Part shown: in pieces, positions 15,001 to 17,842 of the stretch
How positions within the stretch are numbered: position 1 is the first letter of the stretch
Layout: the number at the start of each line of letters is the position of its first letter
Source of the DNA: a virus
Lineage: Duplodnaviria; Heunggongvirae; Uroviricota; Caudoviricetes
DNA: 17,842 nucleotides
Direction: 5' to 3' (one strand)
IMG/VR virus record: IMGVR_UViG_2703718801_000005
Span: 1-17,842 of that record
Program-made: the position numbers

Positions 15001-17842
15001 ACAAAAATAACCTTTCGGGGCTATATTCCTCAAACGCCAGCAAAATCTGGCGTCGGGATTGGCGTCCTGGATAGAGACCGCGACAGATACACGCCGCGAG
15101 CGTGTTTTTTATTGTCGTATGCACGCGCACATCTGAATTATGGTGGGCTGTGTGGGGGCGGAGAGATCCGCGCCGGTCGGTTTCCCGGTTACGCCAACCC
15201 TGCACAGTTCACCACCAGACGATTGGCGTCGTCGGTGGTGAGTTATTAAGAAACCACCAGAGGGCGTCATTATGACAACTAAAATTTCTGTTGAAACTCT
15301 CTCCCCGATCACCCATAACCAGATTCCTGTTATTACCACCGAACTTTTGGCGCAGCTTTACGGCACTGAGCCGGTGCGTATTCGCCAGAATCATCATGAG
15401 AACAAAGTACGCTTCGTTGAAGGGAAACACTTTTTCAAAGTTGTTGGTAATGACCTTAAAGAATTGCGGGTAGCTTTAAACTACTCACAAAATTTGCGGG
15501 TTACTTTAAGTAACTCACAAAATTTGCAACCATCTTTAAGAGGTTTGCAAATTTCCCCCAAAACTCGCTCCCTCATCCTCTGGACAGAACGCGGAGCAGC
15601 CCGTCATGCAAAAATGCTCGAAACTGATCAGGCATGGGAAGTGTTCGAAAAACTGGAAGACTGCTATTTCAGCCAGGGAAAAACAACACAAACCGAACAG
15701 CAGTCGCAGATTCAGCCACAATTCACAGCCGAGGAAATCATCCTCCTTTGCTACATGCAGCTCTGGATGGAAAAAGCCCAGGACCTCAGCAAACACCTGT
15801 ATCCGATCATGAAAGAGCTGAACTCCTCATACACGAACAAGCTGTATGACATTGCGTTTGAAACCATCTACATGGTGACGAAGAACAGAGACGCGCTACT
15901 GCGGGAGGCGGCACGGCTTGACCAGTCAAGTTTCGTTGTCCAGCGGGCCAGACCAATGCTGAAAAGCCTGCGGGCAAGACAATTCGAGTTTTAAGGCCAG
16001 ATTTGACAAATCCGCATTAGCGGGGATATATTCCGCTCCATGGTGCTGAACACACCTTCGAAAGCGGAAACCGCGCCCGTCAGTCATGCGGATTTTTTAT
16101 GTCCATTTTTCAGATATGGTCGGGTAGCGCGTATACCGAAAAACAGCCGCAAGGCTAAGGATGCGGGCCGAACTTTCGACGGTGTTCAAGTACCCGACCG
16201 CCCTGCTGAACACGGGGTGATCTGAACGAATCGAAAGGACATAAAACTATGAGCACTCAACTCGTATTCAAATCCCACGTTCTTGAAACGATCGAACACG
16301 ACGGCAAACAGTGGTTCACTGCCGCGACTTTGGCTTCTGCACTGGAGTATTCGCGCGGCGATAAAATCACCCAGATATACAACCGCAATTCGGATGAGTT
16401 TACTCCTTGTATGTCAATCAACCTCAAAATGAGGTTCAACGGGATCAACAATAGCTTACGAGAGAAAGATGTGCGTATTTTCTCTCTACGCGGTGCCCAC
16501 CTGGTAGCGATGTTCGCAACAACTCCAGTAGCCAAAGAGTTCCGTCGCTGGGTATTGGATATTCTGGACCGTGAAGCTGAAAAAAGCGCTATACCGCCAC
16601 AACCTCATATTCAGCCGCAATTCACAGCAGAAGACATCATCCTGCTCTGCTACGTTCAACTCTGGATGGAAAAAGCACAACAACTCAGTAAACAGCTATA
16701 CCCCGTCATGAGAGAACTGAACTCTGATTACTACGGGAAACTGTTTGATCTGGCCTACGAGACTCGTCATATAACCAACCGGACTCGCGACACATTGCTC
16801 CGCGAAGCAGCAAAACTTGATCCCGCCAACTATATGGTGCATAGGGCCAGAAGCATGCTGGCGCAACTACGGGCAAGACAATTTGAATTCTGAAACCAAA
16901 GGAGCTTCGGCTCCTTTTTTGTTGGGAAAATCCAGTGAGAGGGAATAATGAACCAGACTATCTTCCTCCGAAGTAAGCAGCAGCAACAATTCGCCATTAA
17001 CGCAATCCTTGCAACAACTCTCGATAAAGACAAACCCGTTACGATCCGCATCACCGATTACAAGCGGAATCTCGATCAAAATGCCAAATTTCACGCGATG
17101 GTCGCTGATATCTCCCGACAGGTTCAGTGGTGCGGCAGATGGCTAAAACCAGAACAGTGGAAAGTTTTGTTAATCAGCGGTCATGCCGTGGCGACAAAAC
17201 AGGAAGCCGATGTTTTACCCGGTCTTGAAGGCGAATGCGTCAATATCCGCGAAAGCAGTGCGCAGATGAGCGTGAAGCGTATGGCAAGCCTGATTGAGTA
17301 CACAACTTCCTGGGCTGTGGATAAGGGGGTCAGATTTACCGACAGGAGGTACGAATGAGACGACAGCGACGAAGCATTACCGATATAGTCTGTGAAAACT
17401 GCAATTACCTTCCAACGAAACGCTCCCGAAATAAACCCAGGCCAATCCCCAACGAATCTGATGTAAAAACCTTCAATTATACGTCTCACCTGTGGGATGT
17501 CCGGTGGCTCAGACGTCGTGCAAGATTTAATAGTCACTCCGGATAGTTCAATGTACGAGGAATAAGATGATGGCAAACCTACGCAAAGAAGCGCGTGGCA
17601 GAGAATGTCAGGTACGGATTTACGGCGTATGCAATGGCAATCCTGAAACTACAGTTTTGAACCGCCCCGGGAATCCTGGAGACTAAACTCCCTGAGAAAG
17701 AGGTAAACAGGATGACTAAAAATACACGTTTTTCCCCCGAGGTCCGTCAACGGGCAGTTCGTATGGTTCTGGAAAGTCAGGGCGAATATGACTCACAATG
17801 GGCGGCAATTTGTTCCATTGCCCCAAAGATTGGCTGTACGCC

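Follow-up and report, generated by a model that had tools for sequence, protein, structure and literature searches.

Two adjacent antirepressor-like genes in the nin region of a Stx1a prophage

We analysed a 17,842-nucleotide stretch of Caudoviricetes DNA (positions 1 to 17,842 of IMG/VR record IMGVR_UViG_2703718801_000005; hereafter, the window), which is part of the chromosome of Escherichia coli OkiPb01683 at 100% identity (NZ_AP042515.1; source, bovine faeces, Japan) and spans the left and early-right arms of a Stx1a lambdoid prophage integrated beside ynfH. Two neighbouring genes, here called A and B, sit in the nin region of this prophage between the replication genes and ninB (from 16948), and both open reading frames (ORFs) are intact:

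15272-15994, plus strand: gene A, 240 aa, with an ORF6N domain (aa 12-115) and a P22_AR_C-type C-terminal domain (aa ~146-240); ORF call, Pfam, PHROG and RefSeq
16249-16893, plus strand: gene B, 214 aa, with a Bro-N domain (aa 13-105) and a P22_AR_C-type C-terminal domain (aa ~120-214); ORF call, Pfam and RefSeq

The initial annotation had presented A and B as tandem antirepressor-like paralogs with exchanged N-terminal domains and a common C-terminal domain. The main functional feature of the locus, which that annotation overlooked, is that each gene has its own promoter-like site and its own C4-class leader with matching targets. The parts follow the same order in both cassettes: promoter, a leader with a1 and b1 sites and a terminator hairpin, a C4-class RNA, a2 and b2 sites at or next to the Shine-Dalgarno sequence, and the gene. 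An Rfam search of the whole window at gathering thresholds returned three RNAs, all within the two leaders, and a promoter scan covering 3.1 kb found only four sites, two of which have the form TTGACA-18-TATATT and stand one before each gene. Compared with shuffled controls, both leaders had more stable folds (z = -5.0 and -2.8).

Composition of the two leaders

Cassette A comprises the following elements upstream of its gene:

14998-15027, plus strand: promoter-like site A, TTGACA, 18-nt spacer, TATATT, 11/12 consensus positions (promoter scan)
15034-15110, plus strand: IsrK-type leader RNA A (Rfam isrK, RF01394; 74.7 bits, gathering threshold 50; E 1e-14; full model)
15059-15065, plus strand: a1, TTGGCGT, fully complementary to a' of the C4 RNA, within the IsrK hairpin-2 loop
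15074-15080, plus strand: b1, GAGACCG, pairing with the C4 loop with one G-U (7 bp)
15089-15105 with T-run to 15111, plus strand: intrinsic terminator of leader A (terminator scan)
15136-15219, plus strand: C4-class antisense RNA A (Rfam C4, RF01695; 66.7 bits, gathering threshold 45; E 2.6e-11; full model)
15178-15184, plus strand: b', CGGTTTC, hairpin-2 loop (C4 model and pairing)
15191-15197, plus strand: a', ACGCCAA, junction (C4 model and pairing)
15223-15229, plus strand: a2, TTGGCGT, matching a'
15250-15255, plus strand: b2, GAAACC, 6 bp with b', 4 nt before the Shine-Dalgarno sequence
15260-15264, plus strand: Shine-Dalgarno sequence A, GAGGG (sequence reading)

The sigma-70-like promoter elements (TTGACA and a -10-like hexamer) were kept in leaders related to A, and the isrK model begins at 15034, 7 nt past the -10 hexamer, which fits a transcription start near that position. 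The C4 RNA of this cassette recurred unchanged in 74 phage records, among them phage 2851 and VT2-Sakai-like phages, where it is unannotated. No icd-like ORF fitted between the C4-class RNA and the ATG in either cassette (gaps of 52 nt in A and 41 nt in B), and no tRNA genes were found in the 309-nt gap before gene A. The AUG at 15140, conserved at the 5' end of C4 RNA A, opens a 33-codon ORF that runs to 15241 in another frame and ends 31 nt before the gene A ATG; its offset of about +107 from the predicted transcription start equals that of the first orf45 AUG in Gifsy-1. The same RNA is crossed by a 57-codon GTG-initiated ORF (15102-15275), the stop of which overlaps the gene A ATG (ATGA). 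Either ORF is a candidate analogue of orf45 or icd. In cassette B the reading frame of the counterpart AUG, at 16115, closes after 3 codons.

Cassette B has the corresponding set, beginning 9 nt past the stop codon of gene A:

16003-16032, plus strand: promoter-like site B, TTGACA, 18-nt spacer, TATATT, 11/12 (promoter scan; conserved in the U0 leader family)
16039-16098, plus strand: leader RNA B, analogue of IsrK / c4-a1b1 (sequence reading; no Rfam isrK match)
16047-16053, plus strand: a1, TGAACAC, exact complement of a'
16058-16064, plus strand: b1, TCGAAAG, exact complement of b'
16071-16091 with U-run 16093-16098, plus strand: terminator-like hairpin B (sequence reading)
16095-16107, plus strand: possible cis anti-Shine-Dalgarno arm, TTTTATGTCCATT, complementary to 16234-16246 across the ribosome-binding site of B
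16118-16207, plus strand: C4-class antisense RNA B (sRNA-Xcc1, RF02221; 67.5 bits, gathering threshold 53; E 1.3e-10; full model)
16173-16179, plus strand: b', CTTTCGA, hairpin-2 loop (pairing)
16182-16188, plus strand: a', GTGTTCA, junction (pairing)
16207-16213, plus strand: a2, TGAACAC, exact complement of a'
16231-16237, plus strand: b2, TCGAAAG, exact complement of b', overlapping the Shine-Dalgarno sequence
16235-16239, plus strand: Shine-Dalgarno sequence B, AAGGA (sequence reading)

sRNA-Xcc1 matches C4 in architecture (outer stem, two hairpins, junction and CCaCC-like tail). Two exact 7-mers in cassette B are each matched on both flanks, a double three-way match that was reached by 2 of 5000 RNA shuffles. 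The terminator-like hairpin, passed over by a simple terminator scan owing to its 11-nt loop, covaries in the related leader L003b (CCAAC...GTTGG versus CCGCG...TGCGG). Directly after it, the possible anti-Shine-Dalgarno arm forms part of a 13-nt inverted repeat (I2, 92% complementary), and the resulting helix closes the minimum-free-energy fold of leader B. The arm was kept in related leaders with one compensatory change (TTTGTGTCC/GGACACAAA in L017); cassette A and several further leader types lack it.

Recognition elements covary across related leaders

With the C-terminal domain as query we collected 80 IMG/VR loci, which together with annotated loci gave 100 genes; an initial search with the 100-aa C domain had given mostly fragments and was used for listing partner domains. 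The N-terminal domains of the 100 genes comprised ORF6N, AntA and two Bro-N clusters, and nine families of leader were distinguished; over the 80 loci, leaders, N domains and C alleles were freely combined. A C4 or sRNA-Xcc1 RNA was present directly upstream of the gene in all nine leader types (Rfam; 80 IMG/VR loci), at 40-55 nt from the start codon in the seven types with a clear start, and several types also carried isrK or c4-a1b1 ('a1, b1 targets of C4 antisense RNA'). In Xcc1-type cassettes, b2 lay at -18 to -11, overlapping the Shine-Dalgarno sequence.

The strongest evidence for functional pairing, and for diversifying specificity, was three-way covariation of these elements. Each of 13 distinct cassettes had an RNA loop or junction with exact complements on both flanks, upstream and downstream, and 125 of 156 non-cognate pairs scored 0, including A versus B in both directions; these two cassettes have no a' or b' sequence in common. 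In homologous leaders a', a1 and a2 changed together (a' variants ACGCCAA, GTTCCAA, GTGCTAA, GTTCCTAA and GTGCAAA), and in near-identical leaders the substitutions clustered in b1, b' and b2 and were mutually complementary. The U0 family thus carried the b' alleles CTTTCGA, CTTGTAT and CTTTGCA with the partners TCGAAAG, ATACAAG and TGCAAAG, and four alleles were present in the U1 family (CTTATTTG, CTTTGAAG, CTTGTAAG and CATATGTG). Altogether, at least 18 specificity combinations occurred among ~97 leaders. Leader A was found in 876 of 5426 complete E. coli genomes (16%) and leader B in 117 of 5426.

Domain composition and probable function of proteins A and B

RefSeq lists A as WP_033804705.1 ('ORF6N domain-containing protein') and B as WP_000107186.1 ('BRO family protein'). 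Aligned over their whole length (BLASTP), the two were 44% identical over 202 aa with E 1e-50, a similarity carried by the C-terminal ~100 aa, in which 66/100 residues were identical and the motifs QPQFTAE[ED]IILLCY.QLWMEKAQ ... RARQFEF were shared. In Pfam, A matched ORF6N (6e-19, 68.5 bits, cutoff 27.8) and P22_AR_C (PF10548; 1e-7, 32.1 bits, cutoff 22.4), and B matched Bro-N (4e-9, 37.5 bits, cutoff 25.6) and P22_AR_C (3e-7, 30.8 bits, cutoff 22.4). Both the C-terminal paralogy and the ORF6N-like and Bro-N-like assignments of the initial annotation were therefore borne out. P22_AR_C was also matched in 28/28 B homologues tested, and the combination of Bro-N with P22_AR_C is widespread in Enterobacteriaceae (3784 B homologues). 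An NCBIfam scan of A and B gave nothing meaningful. The AlphaFold2 model of B (mean pLDDT, the predicted local distance difference test, 84) has a beta/alpha N domain, a helical C domain and a disordered linker at 113-122, and when this model was compared with the PDB by Foldseek, no significant match emerged (best E 0.078). For A, the AlphaFold model was of low confidence (mean pLDDT 41).

The two N-terminal domains had been called unrelated, which proved too strong. They do belong to separate Pfam families, with zero cross-family matches in Pfam scans of all alignment members, and direct comparison was weak (BLASTP E 0.018; hhalign E 0.007-0.01 at a probability of ~5%, with shallow alignments and also with a 28-sequence Bro-N alignment). 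PHROG profiles 2127, 2379 and 373, however, match both N-termini across identical profile columns. Structural neighbours of the B model bore the names Bro-N, KilA-N, antirepressor and repressor-domain, and ORF6N, Bro-N, AntA, P22_AR_N/C and others have been described as one domain-swapping 'Bro network' (PMC10111431). The N domains of A and B probably share a remote ancestry.

As judged by homology, A and B are most likely antirepressors, because both show C-terminal homology to P22 Ant (E 1e-9 to 2e-10) and A is akin to the Ant protein of phi24B (43% identical, E 3e-61, with near-identical conserved ORF6N segments), which is encoded in a locus of the same type. PHROGs labels both A and B 'anti-repressor', and on these figures the earlier description of the pair as antirepressor-like is reasonable.

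Gene A carries a 30-nt tandem duplication (15459-15518, 77% identical) that lengthens the hypervariable central part of the ORF6N domain by 10 residues (LRVALNYSQN / LRVTLSNSQN). It is directly followed by a palindrome with 17-nt arms at 15520-15554 (AAATTTGCAACCATCTT / AAGAGGTTTGCAAATTT), and homologues of A diverge strongly in length and sequence at this spot.

Parallels with known immunity and antirepressor loci

Similar genes occupy the position of A and B, between the replication genes and Q, in two other phages: ant of phi24B (vB_EcoP_24B) and the antirepressor gene of phage 2851 (Stx2c). The phi24B gene has the same leader layout as cassette A (isrK / c4-a1b1 followed by C4) and, besides the ORF6N resemblance, encodes a P22_AR_C-type C-terminus; phage 2851 has a stretch 100% identical to the cassette A C4 RNA. 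Unlike the A and B alleles (29-36%), the C allele of phi24B Ant is P22-like (reported 82% identical to P22), and phi24B has one such gene followed by roi, whereas here two P22_AR_C genes stand in tandem. On deletion of phi24B ant, late-promoter activity after induction falls to ~30% (PMC3064807).

In P1, c4 RNA and Icd control Ant (PMC8201110). The immI region of P1 and P7 (c4 - icd - ant1/ant2) resembles the present cassettes in having a C4-family RNA in an antirepressor leader, boxes on both sides of it and, as far as cassette B is concerned, b2 on the ribosome-binding site (overlapping the Shine-Dalgarno sequence, whereas in A b2 ends 4 nt upstream of it), as well as recognition sequences that vary between otherwise similar elements, the basis of heteroimmunity. 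Citron and Schuster are said to have found in 1990 that the P1/P7 c4 RNA is processed from the ant leader and pairs with a2/b2, blocking expression, and that the boxes differ between P1 and P7. The cassettes differ from P1/P7 in being without an icd-like ORF, in the domain make-up of Ant, in lying in a lambdoid nin region instead of a plasmid prophage and in their tandem arrangement, and the RNA of cassette B belongs to the sRNA-Xcc1 branch instead of C4 proper.

In Gifsy-1, IsrK controls translation of the antirepressor-like AnrP, which induces Gifsy-1; the mRNA that reads through the IsrK terminator is translationally silent for AnrP, the short IsrK acts in trans, and IsrK has been described as a structural homologue of P4 seqA (PMC4825925). 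The series isrK - orf45 (STnc1160) - anrP shares with the cassettes a 5' IsrK-family RNA with its own terminator, a stable structured RNA before an antirepressor-like gene and, as predicted here, a read-through mRNA. However, only cassette A matches isrK, and no convincing equivalent is present of orf45, whose translation AnrP synthesis requires in Gifsy-1 (the 33-codon ORF in A, none in B).

The P4 immunity region (seqA - CI RNA - seqC) and the Bro zones of phage-inducible chromosomal islands (PICIs) are likewise comparable in that a processed CI/C4-class RNA pairs on both sides and is associated with Bro-network genes, beside which C4 and isrK profiles detect relatives of P4 CI and seqA (PMC10111431). 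Whereas P4 relies on premature transcription termination within eta/kil, with the RNA inside the Bro-network gene, the RNA here lies in the 5' leader, and b2 (in cassette B) overlaps the Shine-Dalgarno sequence.

P22 Ant (immI: mnt, arc, sar, ant) has the same C domain family, P22_AR_C, and is the source of the name 'antirepressor', but its N domain is P22_AR_N, it is controlled by the Arc and Mnt repressors and the cis-antisense sar RNA, and its gene has another genome location. P22-type control of A and B was rejected, because the 240-270-nt leaders hold RNA elements and no arc- or mnt-like genes and the P22 locus is organised differently. Control by LexA, as for the Gifsy antirepressors of the GfoA/GfhA type, was also rejected, because no LexA box (CTGT-N8-ACAG, at most one mismatch) was found in 10163-17842.

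A model of RNA-gated antirepressor synthesis and its alternatives

We think it rather likely that A and B are two independent antirepressor cassettes gated by antisense RNA and arranged head to tail in the nin region of a Stx1a lambdoid prophage. By analogy with P1 c4/ant, P4 CI and Gifsy-1 IsrK-AnrP, we infer the following mechanism. In the lysogen, the sigma-70-type promoter of each cassette would be active, with most transcripts ending at the leader terminator. Read-through transcripts would give rise to a stable C4-class RNA that pairs with a2/b2 in cis and in trans; this pairing would block ribosome entry, and might promote premature termination, so that no protein is made. The short a1/b1 leader RNA would titrate the C4-class RNA and tip the balance to translation. 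Because the a'/b' sequences are wholly different between the cassettes, each RNA should control its own gene only, yielding heteroimmune specificities like those of P1 and P7. Proteins A and B, once made, would most likely bind and inactivate CI-type repressors and thereby speed induction of the prophage that encodes them or of another in the same cell, an effect reported for the homologous phi24B Ant. As the part common to both proteins, P22_AR_C is a candidate interaction or oligomerisation module, with ORF6N or Bro-N as the variable module.

Several points weigh against this account. Cassette A gave an exact three-way match for a' only, which 175 of 5000 shuffles also reached; its b1 pairing needs a G-U pair, and its b2 falls short of the Shine-Dalgarno sequence. 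Whole-segment duplex energies separated cognate from non-cognate pairs weakly (downstream mean -18.8 versus -14.8 kcal/mol) and did not always rank the cognate target first, although exact three-way k-mer covariation is a better test than these noisy energies. sRNA-Xcc1 falls outside the Rfam C4 clan (CL00128), and a clear coupled ORF resembling icd or orf45, such as P1 and Gifsy-1 have, is missing from both cassettes. Promoter activity, termination, RNA processing and repression are all predicted steps. On the protein side, the C domains share only 29-36% identity with P22 Ant, the antirepressor activity of A and B is assigned by homology, and the phi24B Ant phenotype is modest, with repressor binding in this subfamily putative. 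N domains of the Bro-N/KilA-N type are usually considered to bind DNA, as a direct regulator would.

Such direct regulation, in which A and B would act through Bro-N or the KilA-N-like ORF6N as sequence-specific DNA-binding proteins on phage, other-prophage, satellite or host promoters with the RNA gating unchanged, is a serious rival to the antirepressor reading, if on balance an unlikely one. Among the structural neighbours of modelled B are entries titled 'KilA-N DNA-binding domain-containing', 'Repressor domain protein' and 'Regulatory protein', Bro-network members such as CapR of the Vibrio phage-inducible chromosomal island-like element (PLE) bind regulatory DNA directly (PMC10111431), and the partial phenotype of the phi24B ant deletion is no proof of repressor binding. 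No DNA target was evident, however; the C domain is homologous to P22 Ant, the archetypal repressor-binding antirepressor; and expression of the IsrK-controlled AnrP suffices to induce Gifsy-1.

It is distinctly less probable that each cassette is an RNA-antitoxin module, with a toxic or growth-arresting protein and the C4-class RNA as its antidote, serving prophage maintenance or abortive-infection-type defence. P1 Icd/KilA and P4 Kil/Eta are toxic precedents, tight RNA gating from a constitutive-looking promoter would suit such a module, and a DUF4145 gene and HigBA are found in the neighbouring accessory island. In Salmonella, overexpressed IsrK is toxic, though indirectly, through AntQ (PMC4825925). 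The role as sensors and effectors in conflict between phages that the initial annotation suggested is likewise putative. PADLOC gave two matches of A to the candidate family PDC-S05, but these were marginal (best E 8.6e-5), and no match was obtained for B, HigB or the DUF4145 protein (HigA had one weak match, PDC-M64B, E 3e-4). No toxin-type domain was found, and homologues are annotated as antirepressors and, where tested, promote induction.

Separately assembled cassettes and module exchange

A tandem arrangement was present in 14 of 84 loci examined, with the second place always taken by a Bro-N gene behind a U0 leader, and the cassettes shared no recognition element in any of the 13 tandem loci from which both leaders were recovered. 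Either gene was also found alone or with other partners. One locus had three cassettes. In L053 (622-2794), three C4-class leaders stand in a row. Locus L003 (3234-5610) carries a cassette with its ORF6N gene truncated to a pseudogene, followed by two intact cassettes, and locus L011 (1886-3669) has two cassettes ~1.5 kb apart.

Within the window, the C-domain coding regions of A and B contain a direct repeat:

15707-15825, plus strand: 119-nt repeat copy 1 (family D1), in the C-domain coding region of A, 82% identical to copy 2
16606-16724, plus strand: 119-nt repeat copy 2 (family D1), in the C-domain coding region of B

A natural deletion in strain 2014C-3338 (L004; NZ_CP027452.1, 3473-4195) has its crossover inside this repeat (compared with window positions 15826-16605) and has lost the end of A, leader B and the Bro-N domain, so that leader A and ORF6N are joined to a B-type C-terminus with ninB directly next. 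A chimeric protein of ORF6N and B-type C domain was also recovered in the homology search (P0019). Because the 119-nt repeat was the crossover of a natural fusion, the shared C domain acts as a recombination substrate that reshuffles modules. In E. coli prophages this domain is fused to ORF6N, AntA or Bro-N and exists as two alleles that recombine, in keeping with the domain shuffling that the initial annotation had proposed.

To judge from sequence, A and B are ancient modules of separate assembly that have come to lie next to each other. Had a gene recently been duplicated in place and one N domain then exchanged, leaving the second copy redundant, the shared C domain, the adjacency and the 82% identical 119-nt stretch would be accounted for, but this history is highly improbable and was rejected on sequence divergence and mosaic distribution: the C-terminal coding regions share just 64% DNA identity (33 synonymous and 35 non-synonymous codon differences), the leader families differ (C4 and isrK versus sRNA-Xcc1) and have unrelated recognition elements, each gene occurs without the other while modules mix freely over the 80 loci, and leader A is present in 876 genomes against 117 for leader B. 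The description 'tandem paralogs' consequently stands for the C-terminal paralogy and adjacency and fails in the local duplication that it implied.

Prophage setting and neighbouring features

The prophage genes are ordered int, exo/bet/gam, recE-like, kil, N, S24-type CI, cro, cII, O/P-like replication genes and nin region, with Q, stx1AB and the lysis and structural genes just past the window end. Features beyond the two cassettes were as follows:

8498-9268, minus strand: prophage CI, S24-type (gene map)
13384-14963, minus strand, with a small plus-strand ORF at 14036-14302: accessory island with DUF4145, an 88-aa ORF and higBA (Pfam/PHROG)
14350-14963, minus strand: HigB/HigA toxin-antitoxin pair (Pfam and RefSeq annotation)
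16898-16917, plus strand: intrinsic terminator-like hairpin and T-run between the B stop and ninB (terminator scan)

The DUF4145 protein corresponds to phrog_1305 and the 88-aa ORF to phrog_8371, which has no assigned function. HigB/HigA is the adjoining toxin-antitoxin pair that had been recognised initially, and the start of higB is back to back with promoter A. The hairpin before ninB (AAAGGAGC TTCG GCTCCTTT; 8-bp stem with 4 G-C pairs, then TTTTGTT) may serve the early-right operon as a terminator of the tR2 type. In the OkiPb01683 chromosome (NZ_AP042515.1), matches to leader A occur at two positions; another co-resident prophage in this cell may therefore carry a related C4-class leader.

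Besides lambda-type exo/bet/gam, the early-left operon contains a RecE-family exonuclease of 682 aa and a kil gene of the Rac type (3545-5593 and 6179-6412, minus strand), giving two recombination systems in one prophage. The lysis region of the same Stx1a prophage has a further 'phage antirepressor N-terminal domain' gene (L002, 26186-26755), the counterpart of phi24B d_ant. Among the other loci, phage phiSTEC1589-Stx1c has two STnc100 small RNA matches directly downstream of stx1B (L001, 9557-9899), and L053 has an ALIL pseudoknot, an IS3-type frameshift element, at 3951-4067.

Implications for Stx prophages

The protein annotation, the domain shuffling, the Rfam RNA families and the link between the Bro network and C4-isrK (P1, P4, PICIs and Gifsy-1) are already known, and so is the regulatory logic; the components have earlier descriptions in P1, P4, Gifsy-1, phi24B and PICIs. 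What appears to have gone unremarked is that C4/isrK-type RNAs would gate the nin-region ant genes of Stx phages, and that the cassettes can stand in tandem without cross-reacting and have hypervariable b1/b'/b2 triplets. C4-class and IsrK-type RNAs were unannotated in the RefSeq/GenBank records examined, and this level of control, over a gene carried by a substantial share of E. coli genomes, is therefore easily overlooked. The naturally covarying loop and target alleles amount to ready-made compensatory mutants.

The cassettes lie in the early-right operon of Stx prophages, upstream of Q and stx, where modulators of repressor inactivation can affect toxin output and phage spread. More speculatively, the RNAs may serve as a 'barcode' network among co-resident lambdoid prophages, in which each C4-class RNA silences every antirepressor gene with the same a/b boxes and the a1/b1 leader RNAs act as sponges. 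We regard this idea as doubtful; both the fast diversification into at least 18 specificities and the presence of leader A in 16% of E. coli genomes are compatible with it. If it were true, the specificity set of the prophages in a Shiga toxin-producing E. coli strain would decide which of them, Stx phages included, co-induce or stay silent, and two non-cross-reacting cassettes would let a phage escape silencing by a resident relative.

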